A DNA stretch of 32,000 bases from Trichlorobacter lovleyi SZ (GTDB lineage Bacteria > Desulfobacterota > Desulfuromonadia > Geobacterales > Pseudopelobacteraceae): NCBI RefSeq assembly GCF_000020385.1, contig NC_010814.1:3300001-3332000 (forward strand), read 5' to 3'. A program made the position numbers and the translations under genes. The notes beneath the pieces were generated by a model. The model searched no databases and was not told where the DNA came from. It saw only the letters and a program-made list of their open reading frames with translations. How positions within the stretch are numbered: position 1 is the stretch's first letter; each line of letters starts with the position of its first letter. This document shows positions 5,785 through 30,349 of this stretch, in pieces.

Positions 5785-5888
5785 GTTCAAGGATGATAGC
5801 ACGGCGGCGAAGGGCTCGGCGACGCAGGCGTACCTGCAGTACGTCGAGAAGCCGAGGCCAAGCCAACAAAGCTAGCGCCTTGAAATGG
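5785..5888 (+). repeat. Structured repeat family, copy A (core 5803-5867)
   Basis: Collinear blocks ggcggcga, ggcgacgcaggcgtacc, cgtcgag and aagccaac are shared with the reverse complement of 24599-24664 and, more loosely, with 26781-26846. The internal hairpin is cgtac-ctgca-gtacg. The copy overlaps the last ~5 codons and stop of the 5872-8772 gene. Confidence 0.7.
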
Positions 5889-8772
5889 AATTGGACTTGC
5901 GCTGAATATCCACCGTGGTCATCAACCCCTCCGGCGTAAACGTCAGCCGGGCATTAACCCGCTCCAGCGAATTGATCAGCCGCATGGTGGCTGAACTCTG
6001 ATCACTGAAGGCCGGCTGTTTGGGATGGTAGCGGTTACCGTGGACGGAACAGACAACCGCGCCGCTGGCCTCATCCAGACGGTATGTTCCACCTGACGGG
6101 CAGTAGGGCTGATAGCCGCGCAACGCCTCGGCGGTGGAGGCGAAGCTGTCCGGCGGCAGGCCCAGATTGCGCATCAGGATCGCGGCCAGGGGAAGATTCT
6201 TCTGGCAGGCATGGCGGAGATCCTCCTGATAACCGATACTGGAGGCCTCTTCCAGCTGCTTGAAGGCGGAACGGTAGACCGACAGCTCCATGTTCCCCGC
6301 ATGTTTTTCCACCTTTTGGGTTGTTCCCTTGGCCGAGGCATCCAGCAGGTCGGTCACGATATCACGCCGGGAGGCGATCACCAGCCGGTCATTCACCACT
6401 GCGGCATAGAGCCGCAGCTTGACCACAAACAGGGTGAAGTTGGCCACGTAGACCGGCTTGCCACGATGGTTTTCCAGGCTGTAGGTCTCCAGAGAAAGCT
6501 CATCCCGGCTGGAGTTTCCGGGGCCGACGGCCTGAAACAGCGCCGGGATGGACTGTTCCGCCTTTTTAGGGTCAGTGACCTTGACGGTCAGGTAGGTCGG
6601 CAGGTTGATGGCCGAGGCCAGATAGCCGATCACCAGCGGCTCAATCGAAGATGATCGTCCCACTTCCCGTCCCAGCAGCCCTGCAGCGCGGCCATCGGCA
6701 CTGAACAGGATCTGGCCGTCACACAGGTTGATGGCGACCTCATTTCCCAGCCAGTCCAGCTGCAGGTTGTTCCGGTAGATCCGTTTGTTGCCCAGCAGAT
6801 TCTTTTCCAGCCAATCCTGGGCCATGTGTCCCCGCAGGGAGAAGACCGTCCGCGGCAGCAGGGCGCTGTCGGTAACAACGCCGGGGTTCCGGCCCGAGAA
6901 GGCGGCCAGACCGTCATACCAGGAGTTTTCAATCAACGGCAGGATGCAGGTCTGGATACGGATGTTCCGGCCCAGCTTGACCCGGATGCCGATCGGATCA
7001 AAGAACTGGGTCCAGTAGCGGTTGTAGTTCTCGACAAAGCCCTTGTACTGTGCCGCCTCTTCAGGCGTTACTGCGGCAAGTTTCAGCTCGTTCAGCGGCG
7101 TCAGTCTTCCGGGACGGTTGTGCACCGGGCAGTAGACCTCACCCCGGGCATCGATTGCGTAGGCGCCATGTTCAGGGCAGACCGGCGGGTTCTTGCCCAG
7201 ATACCCGCCTGCCACCAGTTCAGCCATGCCGGGTTCCCGCCGCCTCTCTGCCTTGAACCAGAGCCGGGCATTGGCAATCAGCCCCATGTTGGCGCTGCAC
7301 TGCATCCGGCGGGCCTCGGCAATCTTCCAGTGCGGCCCCACCAGGTTGCGGATATGGGCATCGGAAAGGTAGATGAAGATATCCTCTTCCTTGGCATCCT
7401 GGGGAAAGATGGTGCGCATGTAGCGGAAGTCATCGGCCTGGGCCAGGGCCGGCGCCTGCCGTGCCTCCACCGCCAGCACCCGCTCCAGGGCGGCCTGACT
7501 GGTGGATACCACGGCAAGGTTCTTGATGATCACGGCGTAGGACGATACCCGGCGATCGGCGGAGACCGCAGCAATAACGTTCCTGCCGTGCAGTTCCGAG
7601 ACCGACTGGACAGCACCGCGACTACGGGCAGCCTCGGCATACTGTTTTTCCAGCTGCTTGCGAAACCGGCCGGCATCCTTGAGGCTGAACAGCACGGTAA
7701 CCGCCGTCCCCTCCTTCAGAAAGGGATCGCTGCCGGTAATGGCCATATCCGCCACCACCCGGTCACCAAACATCCGTGTCAACAGGCTGTTCTCAAGACA
7801 GAGCTGCCTGCTGACCTTCTCCCGCACCTTGAAATCCTGGGCACTGCTTTCCACCTGGCGCAACAGGTTGCCGCCCCATTCGTCCATCAAGTCGGCCAGT
7901 TCGATCTGTTTGTTGATATCATTAAAGAACACGGCATACTGGTCATCAGGTATAGAGGATGCCAACAGCGGCAGCGCAGGACTCCTCCCCTTCAGCATCT
8001 CCTTGAAGGGGTGCGATTTGATCTGCGGCCCCTGCAGGCCTACAAGGCTGACAGGTTGTTCCCTGCTAGCGGCAACGCGGGCATTGGCCCCGTTCAACAG
8101 CTCCAGCTGCAGCGTCTCCTGAATCGCCGCAGCACCGGTAAAGACGCTGTAGAGGTCGGGGCTTTCGCGGCGGGAACGGTTTCTGCTACCGGGCAGCTGA
8201 GCTTCAAGGCCATAGCGGGGGGCGATCGCCAGATTCCAGTACTGGCTGTAGGCATCATCGCCCTCGGGGTCTGACCTCCAGAGCGACCATTGGTACTGCT
8301 TGGCCCACTCGCTCCTGATGGTGGCATCGCCGGTGGCATCGGCATCCGGCAGGGTAAAGGCCAGGCGCAGCAGATCACCCTTTGCGGTACGGCTCTGAAT
8401 GGCAAGCTGAGCCGGGCCGGGCTTCAGGTACCGGCCGGTAACCGTAATCATTTCTTCGGTCTGCTCAAGCCGGACCTGTCCTGCTTCGTCAGCATCCGTA
8501 TGGGTATGCCGCCCCTTTGCAGGGGTCAGCAGGTTGACGGTCACCAGAAAGATATCACCATCCTCAACCCTGGGGGTAAGTAGCAGGGGCTGCTTTGTGC
8601 TGCTCTTTGGCAACTTCGTTACAATCCGGAAATACCCCTCATCACCGTTCCTATAGATCTCCGGCACAACCGTAACAGCGGGGGGTGCGCTGATCTTGAC
8701 CGCTGCAACGGCCCCCAGGGCGGCAACGACCAACAACGCGGCCAGCAACGGCACCACTAGACGTCGAGACAT
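5872..8772 (-). CDS. Large secreted protein of unknown function (966 aa) with two pseudopilin-like Cys modules
   Basis: RBS AAAGGAG lies 6 nt upstream of the ATG at 8772, which is preferred over the ORF-track start at 8805. The signal peptide is MSRRLVVPLLAALLVVAALGAVAA. Amino-acid composition is balanced, unlike the 482-aa antisense ORF (6826-8274). An internal duplicated module is present (see findings). Confidence 0.8.
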   Translation of the reverse strand: MSRRLVVPLLAALLVVAALGAVAAVKISAPPAVTVVPEIYRNGDEGYFRIVTKLPKSSTKQPLLLTPRVEDGDIFLVTVNLLTPAKGRHTHTDADEAGQVRLEQTEEMITVTGRYLKPGPAQLAIQSRTAKGDLLRLAFTLPDADATGDATIRSEWAKQYQWSLWRSDPEGDDAYSQYWNLAIAPRYGLEAQLPGSRNRSRRESPDLYSVFTGAAAIQETLQLELLNGANARVAASREQPVSLVGLQGPQIKSHPFKEMLKGRSPALPLLASSIPDDQYAVFFNDINKQIELADLMDEWGGNLLRQVESSAQDFKVREKVSRQLCLENSLLTRMFGDRVVADMAITGSDPFLKEGTAVTVLFSLKDAGRFRKQLEKQYAEAARSRGAVQSVSELHGRNVIAAVSADRRVSSYAVIIKNLAVVSTSQAALERVLAVEARQAPALAQADDFRYMRTIFPQDAKEEDIFIYLSDAHIRNLVGPHWKIAEARRMQCSANMGLIANARLWFKAERRREPGMAELVAGGYLGKNPPVCPEHGAYAIDARGEVYCPVHNRPGRLTPLNELKLAAVTPEEAAQYKGFVENYNRYWTQFFDPIGIRVKLGRNIRIQTCILPLIENSWYDGLAAFSGRNPGVVTDSALLPRTVFSLRGHMAQDWLEKNLLGNKRIYRNNLQLDWLGNEVAINLCDGQILFSADGRAAGLLGREVGRSSSIEPLVIGYLASAINLPTYLTVKVTDPKKAEQSIPALFQAVGPGNSSRDELSLETYSLENHRGKPVYVANFTLFVVKLRLYAAVVNDRLVIASRRDIVTDLLDASAKGTTQKVEKHAGNMELSVYRSAFKQLEEASSIGYQEDLRHACQKNLPLAAILMRNLGLPPDSFASTAEALRGYQPYCPSGGTYRLDEASGAVVCSVHGNRYHPKQPAFSDQSSATMRLINSLERVNARLTFTPEGLMTTVDIQRKSNSISRR

Positions 8773-8817
8773 ATACGCTCCTTTCACCTGCACAAATTCA
8801 AACACGGGATTCCTCTT

Positions 8818-9077: not shown

Positions 9078-9464
9078 CTAGCCTTCCTGAGCAGCCTCTG
9101 CAGCGCCGCCTTCCATAAATTCCTGTTGTGCCTTCATAATGGCCTGCATCTGGCCCAGTTGCTCCCCCAGCCAGGCGTGGATCATGGCAGCGGTCTGGAA
9201 GTTCATGGTCACGCCGGTTTCAATGAAACGGACCATGGAGCCATTCAGGTTTTTGGGATCAGACTCAACCAGGGCGCCGATACCGCCTTCCGGGGTGATT
9301 TCGTGGGTCAGCTCCTTGGGCAGCGCAGGACGCTCCTGGTAGAAATGCATGACCAGTTCACCCCTGGGGCTGAAGCCGCCCTGCACACCATTGGTATAGA
9401 CCGGGTTATAGCTGTAGTTGTAGATGTAGTTAAAGTTGATCTCCGGCTTGCGCTGATGACTCAT
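9078..9464 (-). CDS. Small cytoplasmic protein, DUF3467-like (128 aa)
   Basis: RBS GAGGAAGGA lies upstream of the ATG at 9464; the ORF-track start at 9569 would run through a terminator hairpin. The family call comes from remembered DUF3467 features (aromatic-rich N-terminus, ...GELVMHFYQ...) and is not verified. Confidence 0.6.
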   Translation of the reverse strand: MSHQRKPEINFNYIYNYSYNPVYTNGVQGGFSPRGELVMHFYQERPALPKELTHEITPEGGIGALVESDPKNLNGSMVRFIETGVTMNFQTAAMIHAWLGEQLGQMQAIMKAQQEFMEGGAAEAAQEG

Positions 9465-9540
9465 TGTGGTTCCTTCCTCATGGCTTGAATGTGCAACAAA
9501 GGCCCGATTGTATAGCATATTTCCGCACTGTCTGACAAGC

Positions 9541-9588
9541 GCAAGAAAAGACAGGAAAGGCCCGGTCAAAAACCGGGCCTTTCCTGTC
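9541..9588 (-). terminator. Rho-independent terminator after the tandem small-peptide genes
   Basis: A perfect 16-bp stem: gacaggaaaggcccgg (9550-9565) pairs with ccgggcctttcctgtc (9573-9588). On the minus strand it is followed by ttttcttgc. Confidence 0.75.
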
Positions 9589-9619
9589 TCGCGGCCTGCC
9601 TGATGTCGGGATGCTTTTC

Positions 9620-9766
9620 TTAACCGATCAACCGGCTTCCGATATGACTGAGGGCCGGCCAGGCGATGTTGAGGGCAGCACCGGCGGCAAACATGCCGAA
9701 GACCACCAGGGTCCTGCCGATATACTTACGGTCATTCAGGTCAGAGTAACTCAGTTTTGCTTTCAT
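9620..9766 (-). CDS. Small membrane peptide, 48 aa (MKAKLSYSDLNDRKYIGRTLVVFGMFAAGAALNIAWPALSHIGSRLIG); absent from the ORF track
   Basis: I translated this by hand. RBS GGAGGAT lies 6 nt upstream of the ATG. It has one C-terminal TM segment and is a paralogue of the 9812-9964 peptide. Confidence 0.6.
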   Translation of the reverse strand: MKAKLSYSDLNDRKYIGRTLVVFGMFAAGAALNIAWPALSHIGSRLIG

Positions 9767-9811
9767 GGCTGTATCCTCCGGTGTACGCAGCGCAGCAACC
9801 TGCAGCGTTGA

Positions 9812-9964
9812 TTAGTTGAACAGGCTGGCAAGACCGCTGATGGCACCTGCTGCCGACCAGGTAATGAAACCGCCCAGGAATACTGCTACGCCTGCAAAGA
9901 TTGCCAAGCTGCCTTTTGCGGTGGTTTCTGCCAACAGGACCGAGAAATTGTTTTTTGCTTTCAT
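9812..9964 (-). CDS. Small membrane peptide, 50 aa (MKAKNNFSVLLAETTAKGSLAIFAGVAVFLGGFITWSAAGAISGLASLFN)
   Basis: RBS AAAGGAGGAT lies 5 nt upstream of the internal ATG at 9964. The 172-aa ORF-track version (to 10330) crosses the promoter and repeat region with implausible composition. It shares the MKAK...S.L...G..L..F...A.....I.W.A...I..L pattern with the 9620-9766 peptide. Confidence 0.6.
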   Translation of the reverse strand: MKAKNNFSVLLAETTAKGSLAIFAGVAVFLGGFITWSAAGAISGLASLFN

Positions 9965-10045
9965 GACATCCTCCTTTGGTTTGTTAAACCGTGTGTAGTG
10001 GGTGAACCGGTAATCGTCCGGGTGCGTTGCTTTTGTTTTTACCAT

Positions 10046-10061
10046 TACAAGGCACGTGCCA
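10046..10061 (-). promoter_or_regulatory. Sigma54 (RpoN) -24/-12 promoter candidate for the small-peptide operon
   Basis: The minus strand reads TGGCACGTGCCTTGTA, against the consensus TGGCACG-N4-TTGCW (one mismatch in the -12 box). It lies about 80 nt upstream of the ATG at 9964. Caveat: GGCACGTGCC is itself a 10-bp palindrome. Confidence 0.55.
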
Positions 10062-10172
10062 AAAAGCTGCAGCCCATCAAATATTATTAAAAATAAAGCA
10101 ATTACAGCATATTGCAAAACACCAGCGTCACAAAGCTCCGCACTATGCCGACCGGACGTCCGGCCCGGATAG

Positions 10173-10270
10173 CGTTGCAGATGCAACAGCAACATGCCGC
10201 CCCTTTCTGCAACATGCCAGCCAGACTGACACAACAGCGATCGTTGCATTGCAACAACGCTGCATTGCAA
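10173..10270. promoter_or_regulatory. Cluster of GTTGCA..TGCAAC inverted repeats, a putative enhancer-binding-protein UAS
   Basis: Three sites are present: gttgcaGAtgcaac (10173-10186), gttgcaTtgcaac (10242-10254) and tgcaTtgcaac (10260-10270). They lie 110-210 nt upstream of the sigma54 element, with an AT-rich tract (10075-10110) in between. Confidence 0.45.
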
Positions 10271-10387
10271 CAACGCCCGCCACCATTCCATCAAGATACC
10301 ACGCAGCGCAAAACAGGCGGTCCGGCCCACACCGCAAAACCTGCCTGAACCGTCCGAAACAACAGGCCCTTTTCAGATAAAATCAAA

Positions 10388-11003: not shown

Positions 11004-12434
11004 ATGAAACCGCTTTTTCTCAATCCCCCTACCTTTGAGGATTTTGATGGTGGCGCCGGTGCCCGTTATCAGGCCTCACGGGAAGTCACCTCATTCTGGT
11101 ATCCCACCTGGCTCTGCTTTCCTGCCGGCATGATTGAAGGCAGCCGCGTGGTGGATGCCCCGGTACAAAAACTCACCCTGGAAGACTGCCTGACCATTGC
11201 CAAAGGATTTGACATGGTGGTGATGTACACCTCCACCCCCACCCTGGCAATCGACATTGAGACCGCCCGCAGGATCAAAGAGGTAAAGCCGGATATCGTC
11301 ACGGTCCTGACCGGCCCCCATGTCTCGATCCTGCCGGAAGAGTCGCTCAAGGCCGGCCACGGCATCATCGACATTGTCTGCCGCGGCGAGTTCGACTACT
11401 CCACCAAGGAGCTGTGCGAAGGGCGCGATTGGTCAAAGGTGGACGGTATCAGCTTTATCAAGGACGGCAAGACGATCCATACCCCGGACCGTCCCCTGAT
11501 TGAGGATCTGGACGCCCTGCCGTTTGTGGCACCGATCTACAAGCGTGATCTGCCGATTTCTGAATACGTGATCCCCCACTTCAAGAACCCCTATGTCTCG
11601 ATCTACTCCAGCCGGGGCTGCCCCTCCAAGTGCATCTACTGCCTCTGGCCGCAGACCTTCTCCGGCCGTCAGATGCGCCTGCGCTCGCCGCAGAACGTCT
11701 ATGAAGAGGTTAAGTGGATTGTGGACAACATCCCGGAGATGCGTGAGCTCTCCTTTGACGACGACACCTTCACCGCCAGCCGGGAGCATGCCCGCAATGT
11801 GGCCAACCTGCTCAAGCCGCTGGGGATCTCCTGGACCATCAACGCCCGGGCCAACTGCGATTACGAGACCCTCAAGGTCATGCGTGAGGCAGGCCTGCGC
11901 CATGTCGTTGTCGGGTATGAAAGCGGCAACGAGCAGATCCTGAAGAACATCAAAAAGGGGGTCACCAAGGAACAGGCGATCCAGTTCACCAAGGATTGCA
12001 AGAAGCTTGGGCTGTCCGTCCACGGCGCCTTTATCATGGGACTGCCCGGTGAGACCAAAGAGACCATCCGCGAGACGATTGAGTACGCCAAGCAGCTGGA
12101 CCTGAACTCGATTCAGGCCTCGCTGGCCTCCCCCTACCCCGGCACCGAGTTTTACACCCTGGCCAAGGAGCAGGGCTGGATCGCCTCCGATGACTTCATC
12201 GACAGCACCGGTCACCAGAAATGCGTGATCAACTACCCCAACCTGACCAACGCCGAGATCTTCAACTCGGTGGAGGAGTTCTACGACAAGTTCTACTTCC
12301 GCCCCAAGTACATCCTGCGCAGCATCGGCAAGATGATCGTGGATGGCGAGGAACGCCGCAAGCTGCTCAAGGAAGGCAAGCAATACCTGGAGTACATGCG
12401 CAAGCGGAAGCAAGGCCAGGCTTGCGAAAGCTGA
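11004..12434 (+). CDS. hpnJ: B12-binding-domain radical SAM protein, hopanoid-biosynthesis-associated HpnJ type
   Basis: The N-terminus LFLNPPTFEDFDGGAGARYQASREVTSFWYPTWL matches HpnJ as I recall it. The radical SAM Cys cluster is CPSKCIYC. The length is 476 aa and a YdjC-type (HpnK) gene follows directly. Antisense ORFs (11433-12413 and others) are shadow ORFs. Confidence 0.75.
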   Translation: MKPLFLNPPTFEDFDGGAGARYQASREVTSFWYPTWLCFPAGMIEGSRVVDAPVQKLTLEDCLTIAKGFDMVVMYTSTPTLAIDIETARRIKEVKPDIVTVLTGPHVSILPEESLKAGHGIIDIVCRGEFDYSTKELCEGRDWSKVDGISFIKDGKTIHTPDRPLIEDLDALPFVAPIYKRDLPISEYVIPHFKNPYVSIYSSRGCPSKCIYCLWPQTFSGRQMRLRSPQNVYEEVKWIVDNIPEMRELSFDDDTFTASREHARNVANLLKPLGISWTINARANCDYETLKVMREAGLRHVVVGYESGNEQILKNIKKGVTKEQAIQFTKDCKKLGLSVHGAFIMGLPGETKETIRETIEYAKQLDLNSIQASLASPYPGTEFYTLAKEQGWIASDDFIDSTGHQKCVINYPNLTNAEIFNSVEEFYDKFYFRPKYILRSIGKMIVDGEERRKLLKEGKQYLEYMRKRKQGQACES

Positions 12435-15310: not shown

Positions 15311-16636
15311 TCAATCCCCCGAATACAGCCACATCTGCGCCTCGCGGGGTGGAATGGCAAAGACGAAAGTATCGCCGGTCACGTTCATTTCGTGGCCGTG
15401 AATCTGGCAGCGGTATTTTCCCTGCCGCATTCCCCGGGTCCAGATGACCGGATGCTGCCACTTGTTGGTCTTGTTGATGGCGACGATGCCACGATCTCCC
15501 CGGGCAAAGACCAGAAATCCGTCCGCTTCGTACAGAGCACGTTGCGGCATGCCATGCACGGCGTTATGGAAGCGGATCATGGCGGCAATATCGTGACGCT
15601 GCCAGGCATCGGCCCAGCGGTCCCTGTCTTCGGGATAACGGCCGGCGCTCTGGTTGTTGTCGGAATAGACCAGCGGCACCCCGCCGTCCCGTCCCATCAG
15701 ATAGACGTGGGCCAGATATTCATCCTGGGGCTCCAGCAAGACCCCGCGAAAACCATCGTTGTTGGGGATGTCATGGGTGACGGCCACCGTCACCGCCCGG
15801 TACCAGGGCAGGGCCTGACCGAAGGCGGCGGGGTCCACCAGTTCACGCATGCTGCCTGATGGCGCGAATGCCTTGCGCAGGGTTTCCTGCAACACAAAGT
15901 CGTAGCAGGGAAAATCGGTCGTTTTCATCACCGGCCAGAGGAACGTGGCTTCCTGATTATCATTGAAGGTCAGAACCTCGCCGAAAACGAACTTGTCCTG
16001 CATTCCTTCCGTTTCAAATACCGCCTCCAGATGGGCAACCGGCAGATGTTTCAAGGCATCGATCCGGTAACCGGAAAAGCCAAGCCCGTTCAGCGCACTC
16101 AGGCACTCACGCTGCTGCTGCACCACCTTGTCACAGAATTCAAGATCAGGCAGCCCACCCAGACTGCCTTCTTCGACCTCCCATGGGTCATTGTAGTTCT
16201 TTATTTCGCCGAGCTTGTTGAATTCATCCGGTGAGAACAGCCCCTCGTTCAGGTTGCCATACAGGCAATCATCCTTGAATCCCGCCCCTTCTTCTGCACT
16301 CGAGTAGCGTTGCAGCACCGCTTCGCCCGGGAAATTGAAGCGATCTCTGCGGTTCTCATTGGCCATGTGATTGAAGACCACATCCGCATAGGCCCGCACC
16401 CCGCACTTCTTAAGCGCGTCAACAGCACGCTTGAGATCTGCCTTGCGCCCGAGATACGAGCGAATCACACGGTAATCCCTGGGCTGGTAGCGTTGCCACC
16501 ACTCCTGACCATTTTCATCGCTATAGAGCGGCGGTGGAAATAACACCGCACCGAAGCCCATATCCCCGATCCGTTGGGCATTGACTTCGTTATCCTTGTA
16601 GCGCCAGTCAAAGGCGTGCAAAATGACGTCGTACAT
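15311..16636 (-). CDS. Cytoplasmic alpha-amylase-family glycoside hydrolase (GH13)
   Basis: RBS AGGAGA is present. GH13 conserved regions are DVVFNH (I), GYRIDALKH (II), FGEV (III) and VTHD (IV). There is no signal peptide. Confidence 0.85.
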   Translation of the reverse strand: MYDVILHAFDWRYKDNEVNAQRIGDMGFGAVLFPPPLYSDENGQEWWQRYQPRDYRVIRSYLGRKADLKRAVDALKKCGVRAYADVVFNHMANENRRDRFNFPGEAVLQRYSSAEEGAGFKDDCLYGNLNEGLFSPDEFNKLGEIKNYNDPWEVEEGSLGGLPDLEFCDKVVQQQRECLSALNGLGFSGYRIDALKHLPVAHLEAVFETEGMQDKFVFGEVLTFNDNQEATFLWPVMKTTDFPCYDFVLQETLRKAFAPSGSMRELVDPAAFGQALPWYRAVTVAVTHDIPNNDGFRGVLLEPQDEYLAHVYLMGRDGGVPLVYSDNNQSAGRYPEDRDRWADAWQRHDIAAMIRFHNAVHGMPQRALYEADGFLVFARGDRGIVAINKTNKWQHPVIWTRGMRQGKYRCQIHGHEMNVTGDTFVFAIPPREAQMWLYSGD

Positions 16637-30261: not shown

Positions 30262-30349
30262 GGAGGGGTGTCCGAGAGGTCGAAGGTGACAGACTCGAAA
30301 TCTGTTGTACCGCAAGGTACCCAGGGTTCGAATCCCTGCCCCTCCGCCA
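30262..30349 (+). tRNA. tRNA-Ser (anticodon CGA)
   Basis: I folded this by hand. The acceptor is ggagggg/cccctcc. The anticodon stem is acaga/tctgt with loop ctCGAaa. The long variable arm is tgtaccgcaaggtacc. The T-arm is cagggttcgaatccctg, and the 3' CCA is encoded. Confidence 0.9.

Follow-up and report, generated by a model that had tools for sequence, protein, structure and literature searches.

The window analysed here, a 32,000-nucleotide (nt) stretch of the Trichlorobacter lovleyi SZ chromosome, carries on its minus strand two small tandem genes, which we call pepA and pepB, flanked by a predicted sigma-54-type promoter and a terminator-like hairpin (Table 1). A first-pass annotation made from the letters of this DNA had placed two adjacent genes at these coordinates, each with a near-perfect ribosome-binding site (RBS) and an MKAK start, and all these elements were found when we re-checked the sequence. 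It had also reported the genes as missed by the open reading frame (ORF) track. This holds for the mechanical ORF list and not for public gene callers, which have called both genes in many assemblies; the window's own database record holds a 5'-truncated, 40-aa version of pepA (P0018). On the list, pepA is hidden within a 172-aa ORF, an overlap that the first-pass annotation had pointed out. The upstream extension of this ORF is not conserved, and relatives have an in-frame stop 1-57 codons before Met1 of pepA. The 172-aa ORF is a mechanical artefact, and its extension crosses the promoter region.

A scan of species-representative genomes yielded 45 loci, making with the window a set of 46 cassettes from Trichlorobacter and other Geobacteraceae (individual loci are designated by L numbers below). 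The gene order pepA then pepB is kept in all 46, with a spacing of 30-68 nt and Shine-Dalgarno (SD) sequences on both genes. PepA has 50 residues (51 in one case) and PepB 48, with no other indels, and no frame-breaking change was found among these cassettes. Median pairwise dN/dS values of 0.13 for pepA and 0.09 for pepB indicate purifying selection, and synonymous variation is abundant along the full length of both genes, including the part coding for the N-terminal motif. The frames are thus intact in relatives, rather than broken by indels or altered by substitutions without third-position bias, the outcome that the first-pass annotation had named as contrary to its proposal. At 90% identity, PepA forms 19 clusters, 78-96% identical to the window copy and with the truncated P0018 call among them, and PepB 21 clusters, or 77 after a profile search. 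The named PepB members come from Trichlorobacter, Geobacteraceae or Desulfuromonadaceae and are all annotated 'hypothetical protein'. We conclude that pepA and pepB are genuine, strongly conserved genes.

Table 1. Features of the pepA-pepB locus, followed by neighbouring and distant features of the window (aa, amino acid residues; UTR, untranslated region; UAS, upstream activator sequence; IHF, integration host factor).
Feature	Position in the window	Strand	Description
pepA	9964-9812	minus	50 aa, protein MKAKNNFSVLLAETTAKGSLAIFAGVAVFLGGFITWSAAGAISGLASLFN; RBS AAAGGAGGAT ahead
pepB	9766-9620	minus	48 aa, protein MKAKLSYSDLNDRKYIGRTLVVFGMFAAGAALNIAWPALSHIGSRLIG; RBS GGAGGA at 9779-9774
pepA-pepB spacer	9767-9811	minus	45 nt; includes the pepB RBS; SD always present in relatives
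Predicted pepA 5' UTR	9965-10035	minus	About 70 nt; RBS AAAGGAGGAT at 9977-9968; transcription start site inferred from the promoter position
Predicted sigma-54-type promoter	10061-10046	minus	TGGCACGTGCCTTGTA (TGGCAC-GTGCC-TTGTA); 97 nt ahead of the pepA ATG; canonical GG at -24, GT in place of GC at -12
A+T-rich stretch between UAS and promoter	10066-10118	minus	Possible bending or IHF-type region, from inspection of the sequence only
Putative proximal UAS block	10174-10218	minus	Direct repeat GGCATGTTGC at 10218-10209 and 10198-10189; half-site at 10213-10208; perfect palindrome GTTGCA-TC-TGCAAC at 10187-10174
Putative distal UAS	10243-10271	minus	GTTGCAATGCAGC at 10271-10259, one mismatch; perfect palindrome GTTGCA-A-TGCAAC at 10255-10243
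Terminator-like hairpin and T-rich tail	9538-9590	minus	Hairpin proper at 9590-9548; from folding
Mechanical 172-aa ORF	9812-10330	minus	Swallows pepA; runs through the promoter region
129-aa ORF	9078-9467	minus	No Pfam or NCBIfam match
Sigma-70-like promoter of the 129-aa gene	9534-9507		CAGACA-16-TACAAT
977-aa ORF	5872-8805	minus	No Pfam or NCBIfam match
hpnJ	11004-12434	plus	790 bits; hopanoid-associated B12 radical SAM enzyme
Cobalamin riboswitch aptamer	2513-2586	plus	40.1 bits (Rfam)
tRNA	30262-30346	plus	52.4 bits (Rfam)

Both products are hydrophobic, with hydropathy windows of grand average 1.95 (PepA) and 1.68 (PepB). Each begins with an N-terminal segment some 18 residues long, whose net charge is +2 in PepA and +3 in PepB. 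The hydrophobic stretch of each is rich in small-xxx-small spacings, which bears out the pattern described in the first-pass annotation, and AlphaFold predicts one continuous long helix for each, with predicted local distance difference test (pLDDT) scores of 87 for PepA and 76 for PepB. By the positive-inside rule, they would be single-pass membrane proteins with a cytoplasmic N-terminus. In the cassettes, conservation is highest in this N-terminal segment for PepA and PepB alike, with the motifs MKAKxN(F/Y)SxLxAETTAKGS in PepA, which also has an invariant Trp36, and MKAKxSYSDL(N/D)DRKYIG in PepB, the latter ending in a C-terminal (I/V)AWPALSHIG.

The initial comparisons between PepA and PepB were weak (BLASTP E = 0.015; 46% probability with narrow profiles). 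With broad family profiles, the two align in register over 43 ungapped columns, with 95% probability and E = 2.5e-8. In Desulfuromonadales, both tandem genes are of the pepB type and clearly resemble each other (L054, L055). These alignments and tandem copies indicate that pepA and pepB are paralogous, in agreement with the first-pass annotation, and, because the Desulfuromonadales pair is made of two similar pepB-type copies, they identify pepA as a diverged first copy. Single-copy exceptions to the tandem pair were found in L046 and in Desulfuromonas soudanensis (L051).

An exhaustive PepB profile search of 1.84 billion representatives returned only 43 clusters at 50% identity, nearly all with proteins of 44-50 residues, and every member that is named or whose context was checked comes from Desulfuromonadales. 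An 'ammonium transporter' in one of these clusters lacks any PepB-like sequence and was discarded as a clustering artefact. The most widely conserved feature across the whole family is a C-terminal AWPAL motif, (I/V)AWPAL(S/A)(H/Y)(I/L)G.KL, which reads IAWPALSHIGSRLIG in the window PepB. By its length, its one hydrophobic helix and this motif, the window PepB belongs to this unnamed 'AWPAL' family: it is 96% identical to SAMN02745119_01209 of T. thiogenes and falls in the same profile family as DSOUD_0208 of D. soudanensis, both annotated 'hypothetical protein', and PepA is its diverged paralogue. When PepA, PepB and ten distant relatives of PepB were scanned against Pfam and NCBIfam, no family was matched and only sub-threshold noise came up (such as ATP synthase c, CcmD and Coa3); the first-pass annotation, too, had recognised no family. 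PDB sequence searches with both family profiles returned nothing meaningful, and a literature search found no paper describing peptides of this type. PepA and PepB thus represent a genuine small-protein family that is absent from curated family libraries.

The hairpin predicted after pepB comprises 20 pairs around a perfect, G+C-rich core of 16 pairs, which corresponds to the 16-bp perfect terminator hairpin of the first-pass annotation, and is followed by a T-rich tail. Its folding energy is -46.5 kcal/mol (z = -5.8), and 0 of 200 shuffled sequences fold as well. A hairpin is found just 3' of pepB in all 46 cassettes. It folds strongly in 45 of them, with energies of about -17 to -39 kcal/mol, and has a clear T-tail in many; in L040 it is weak and more distant from pepB. 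A simple promoter and terminator scan listed only a sigma-70-like site of the next gene and no terminator; it missed the hairpin in the window because part of the T-run lies inside the stem.

Upstream of the pair, cassettes that stand alone, as in the window (hereafter type 1), share the sequence TGGCAC-N5-yTGy at 93-119 nt ahead of the ATG, found in the window and in 22 of the 26 other type-1 loci. Relaxed scans added a promoter in L020, L024, L036 and L039, at 59-70 nt in the latter two, and L021 reads TGGCAC-N5-TTGA. All 27 type-1 cassettes keep a perfect -24 half and the fixed 10-nt spacing of sigma-54 promoters. Across these loci, the hexamers are invariant and the 5-nt spacer is variable, a pattern suggestive of a working sigma-54 -24/-12 element. 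GTTGCA-N0-2-TGCAAC palindromes are present at a conserved distance, 110-200 nt upstream of the promoter, in all type-1 loci, that is, with the inverted repeats and the range of some 100-200 nt from a sigma-54 promoter that characterize upstream activator sites. In the window, the 98 nt from 10174 to 10271 contain six GTTGCA/TGCAAC half-sites, compared with 30 over the full 32 kb. We also considered a NifA-type TGT-N10-ACA reading of the palindromes and rejected it, as the spacing does not fit.

Genomes harbour up to four cassettes, with 0-4 type-1 copies each: T. thiogenes ATCC BAA-34 has L007, L015 and L027, and UBA6169, UBA6802 and co309_23 have four each. Clustering of the flanking regions revealed about six chromosomal positions. 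Orthologues of the window copy are found in L015, L017, L018 and L023 and in six more loci, which include L001, L004, L008, L011 and L022, with a shared synteny of hpnJ, a gene for an HhH protein, the cassette, a 129-aa ORF and a 200-aa ORF, and the 977-aa ORF in some only. HpnJ is 97-98% identical to its counterparts at the closest of these loci (L015, L018 and L023), and relatives show 80-92% conservation of the 129-aa and 977-aa ORFs. As these two ORFs are syntenic with the cassette at this one chromosomal position only, we rejected them as cassette partners. The 129-aa gene has its own sigma-70-like promoter (Table 1). Other stand-alone copies adjoin unrelated genes, encoding NifU and IspF, CobD and a chromate transporter, or a chemoreceptor.

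Phage-like genes lie beside two cassettes, one encoding a tape-measure protein in T. thiogenes (L007:2297-5473, plus strand) and the other a terminase cluster (L056:204-6603, minus strand). They probably reflect prophage insertion next to the cassette; carriage of the cassette by phages is not supported, as a scan of viral contigs found no relative. One locus labelled 'Candidatus Roizmanbacteria' (L042, JAAXWV010000300.1) is of the Geobacteraceae type and nearly identical to L041 and L044, and its contig has probably been mis-binned. An Rfam scan of the window matched only the cobalamin riboswitch and the tRNA listed in Table 1, both away from the cassette.

A second type of cassette is part of an operon (type 2). 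Exactly one such copy is present in 15 of 19 genomes and two in one genome; none was seen in three metagenome-assembled genomes, UBA6169, MiH-14oct19-241 and that of the window, the last being represented by the window only. The gene order is the same in T. thiogenes and on through to distant Geobacteraceae: a NifX/MrpORP-C-terminal-like protein (~105 aa), PepA, PepB, the hairpin, a Zn-ribbon protein (~260 aa), a cytochrome (~615 aa), a membrane protein (~84 aa), a PAS-PAS-Sigma54_activat-HTH_8 activator and a TPR protein. The hairpin after pepB is thus kept in these operons too, although further genes follow. One variant, L046, lacks pepA. Most type-2 operons start from TGGCAC-N5-TTGGA, with GTTGCA..TGCAAC palindromes ahead, a few having half-sites only. 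In the type-2 leaders of L025, L027, L029, L030 and L037, an inverted TGCAAC-N7-11-GTTGCA element is found just past the -12, about 385-400 nt before pepA, which could be an additional protein-binding site or a leader hairpin.

The operon cytochrome harbours nine CXXCH motifs and several C-terminal hydrophobic helices, with a weak FdnI-like match. This is the architecture of CbcL as published, with a nine-haem c domain and a dihaem b domain (bioRxiv 10.1101/2022.08.31.506072). At least 84% of Desulfuromonadia species have CbcL, typically as a single copy. Nothing turned up in literature searches on the genes next to cbcL (GSU0272-0276). Desulfuromonas-type loci have the pair among NapC/NirT-type and NrfD/FeS/c7 quinol-oxidoreductase genes, and in D. 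soudanensis the pepB-type gene is about 5 kb from a gene for a 617-aa multihaem cytochrome. The promoter, the palindromes, the multi-copy dispersal and the cytochrome-operon link had all gone unmentioned in the first-pass annotation.

Several other products of the type-2 loci deserve description. The TPR protein resembles LcrH/SycD, chaperones that bind peptides (E = 2e-11). The operon opens with a gene for a protein of about 103-115 residues (L027:5613-5960, L045:5646-5957, L052:7224-7535, all plus strand) with no Pfam match and a weak match to the NifX-like C-terminal domain of the Fe-S carrier MrpORP (E = 9e-5). The Zn-ribbon protein, of ~250-265 residues and encoded between pepB and the cytochrome gene (L027:6339-7142, L045:6436-7197, L046:8182-8952, all plus strand), shows weak matches to IS1595/IS1 transposases and may be a domesticated transposase derivative. 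At the end of the locus, a convergent gene (L027:11838-12107, L048:15653-15922, both minus strand) codes for an 89-aa soluble protein that starts with MKAKTNYS and is otherwise unrelated to the peptides. A separate GTTGCA..TGCAAC palindrome and a putative sigma-54 promoter, TGGCAT-N5-ATGCT, precede this gene (L048, upstream region 15923-16145), which looks like a third regulon member sharing only the N-terminal tag.

We are confident in the structural and regulatory description of the locus, in which pepA and pepB would form a bicistronic, self-contained unit with a sigma-54 promoter, activated from GTTGCA-N(1-2)-TGCAAC palindromes, with efficient translation of both genes and an intrinsic terminator at its end. 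The best overall explanation, whose chances we judge to be about even, is that such sigma-54 cassettes supply abundant membrane peptides that act as partners of the CbcL-type branch. The small-xxx-small faces of PepA and PepB would probably serve for pairing or oligomerisation. The founding copy would be the head of the conserved sigma-54 operon that also encodes the CbcL-like quinol oxidoreductase and the PAS-PAS activator. Because all copies share the promoter type and the palindromes, this activator would switch on every dispersed cassette together with the operon and the 89-aa gene, in response to a signal that is probably of the redox type. The peptides would be made in large excess over the cytochrome, since the terminator follows pepB even within the operon and extra copies are present. 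Their most likely role would be that of accessory or modulatory partners of CbcL-type inner-membrane electron transfer, through assembly, stabilisation or gating. Taken on its own, the functional link of the peptides to the cytochrome is tentative, and we would sooner expect it to fail than to hold.

A number of observations weigh against a partnership with the cytochrome or against the regulation that we propose for it. Most cassettes sit among unrelated housekeeping genes, and the window holds neither the activator nor the cytochrome gene, the regulon link being made through DNA motifs shared in relatives. The pair could lie near cytochrome genes because they are regulated together, with no physical contact between the products. 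No residue of the peptides stands out as a strictly conserved ligand for haem or quinone, and distant members have Tyr in place of His41 of PepB. The -12 element departs from the canonical GC: type-1 cassettes mostly have GT (GC in nine, GA in L021) and type-2 operons GG. The Desulfuromonadales pairs appear to use sigma-70-like promoters, so that sigma-54 control would be lineage-specific. Lastly, cbcL of Geobacter sulfurreducens was reported to be constitutive (bioRxiv 10.1101/2021.04.15.440034; 10.1101/2022.08.31.506072), and the regulatory logic may therefore differ between genera.

The closest parallel in layout is the cbcBA operon of G. sulfurreducens, which has a sigma-54 promoter, two genes for hypothetical proteins in first position (GSU0597 and GSU3489, the latter predicted to be in the inner membrane) and a requirement for the activator BccR (bioRxiv 10.1101/2021.04.15.440034; PMC7726332). 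Both systems thus combine a sigma-54 promoter, two small hypothetical proteins ahead of a bc-type inner-membrane cytochrome and a sigma-54 activator encoded at the locus, a likeness of gene layout drawn from the literature. They differ in that the cytochrome is a fused, nine-haem c/b protein of the CbcL type here and is made of separate CbcA and CbcB proteins there, and in that the activator has PAS sensor domains and is co-transcribed here, while the other has a receiver domain and is divergent. The additional stand-alone cassettes are a further difference. Of 20 representative clusters from the exhaustive PepB search whose origin we checked, none was from G. sulfurreducens.

Small single-pass proteins are known as accessory subunits of respiratory complexes, such as CydX of cytochrome bd. 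Like PepA and PepB, CydX-type subunits have fewer than 50-60 residues and one helix, are encoded with a quinol oxidoreductase and are usually overlooked in annotation. They share no sequence similarity with our peptides, which in addition form a paralogous pair followed by a terminator and occur in dispersed sigma-54 cassettes. The supply layout recalls that of light-harvesting peptides, with pufBA followed by a hairpin and then pufLM, and with pucBA in multiple copies. In both cases, two tandem single-helix peptides of ~50 residues precede a hairpin and genes for a larger complex, and dispersed extra copies point to a design for peptide excess. The analogy is one of layout only: the hosts are non-phototrophic, and there is neither sequence similarity nor a Pfam match. 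There is also no conserved His that might serve as a pigment ligand, as PepA has no His and that of PepB is the variable residue mentioned above.

Other functions were weighed against the same evidence. PepA and PepB might be general small proteins of the membrane or energy stress response, under the same sigma-54 activator, that stabilise the bilayer or leak the proton-motive force rather than assist a cytochrome. The stand-alone, dispersed, multi-copy cassettes with strong expression signals, their mostly unrelated neighbours and small-residue-rich helices suited to self-association would all agree with this proposal, and sigma-54-controlled small membrane proteins exist elsewhere, PspG of the Psp response being one. 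However, the related operons encode an activator with two PAS domains, unlike PspF, which has no sensory domain. The related loci yielded no gene of the PspA family, and quinol-oxidoreductase and cytochrome genes are the most consistent neighbours across the order. We consider a stress function unlikely; the 'small stress membrane proteins' suggested in the first-pass annotation are possible and less specific than the cytochrome-linked interpretation. The conservation of the N-terminal segments lends itself to another proposal, namely that PepA, PepB and the 89-aa protein are signalling adaptors whose N-termini dock onto the TPR protein or the PAS activator, tethering or titrating the regulator in a feedback loop. 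It is consistent with the presence of the same 8-residue start on the unrelated 89-aa protein, which has its own UAS and sigma-54 promoter, and with the LcrH/SycD-like character of the TPR protein encoded in the operon. Yet the MKAK start is lost in distant pairs that are still in the operon (L052), the most widely conserved feature of the family is the C-terminal AWPAL motif, and A-rich early codons favour translation, so that part of the N-terminal motif may be an expression signal. This adaptor role appears quite unlikely to us.

The first-pass annotation had also been reminded of two-peptide membrane-active systems, and two small, tandem, hydrophobic peptides with small-xxx-small motifs do resemble class IIb bacteriocins, with their adjacent genes and GxxxG-like motifs, or another secreted membrane-active pair. 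This hint was not supported. No leader of the GG, GA or GS type was found at the expected site, the N-terminus being instead conserved, positively charged and predicted to be cytoplasmic, and no C39 peptidase/ABC exporter or recognisable immunity gene was identified in the window or in the ~10 annotated loci, where modification enzymes were absent as well. The charge distribution follows the positive-inside rule, giving the topology of resident membrane proteins, and very strong purifying selection with near-identical intragenomic copies is the opposite of bacteriocin diversification. We regard secretion of the pair as most improbable. Multi-copy hydrophobic toxins of the type I toxin-antitoxin kind, silenced by antisense RNA, were considered as well, since PepA and PepB are small, hydrophobic and encoded in several dispersed copies per genome. 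Such toxins would hardly be expected to have the strong, exposed SD sequences found on both genes, an activator-dependent promoter, an invariable arrangement as two genes or a founding copy within a respiratory operon. The variable spacer of 30-68 nt leaves no conserved room for an antisense gene, although no search aimed at antisense RNA was made. This explanation, too, has very little chance of being correct.

The locus illustrates how real small proteins can be lost or mis-started in annotation, the true pepA gene being masked here by both a 172-aa ORF and a truncated 40-aa call. A further-reaching model has PepA and PepB forming an abundant, hetero-oligomeric inner-membrane scaffold or gate of the CbcL low-potential quinol-oxidation branch, whose dosage would be set by the redox-sensing PAS/sigma-54 activator acting on the dispersed cassettes and by the in-operon terminator. 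In this detailed form, the model is speculative and probably incorrect. If true, the peptides would be an unrecognised component of extracellular electron transfer, with a supply layout parallel to that of antenna peptides for photosynthetic reaction centres. How Geobacter-type bacteria choose among the quinol oxidases ImcH, CbcL and CbcBA as the acceptor potential shifts is an open question, and published work on CbcL invokes an unexplained, potential-dependent 'switch-off' (bioRxiv 10.1101/2022.08.31.506072). PepA, PepB and the cis-element GTTGCA-N-TGCAAC are concrete candidates for the regulation or the assembly of the CbcL branch.

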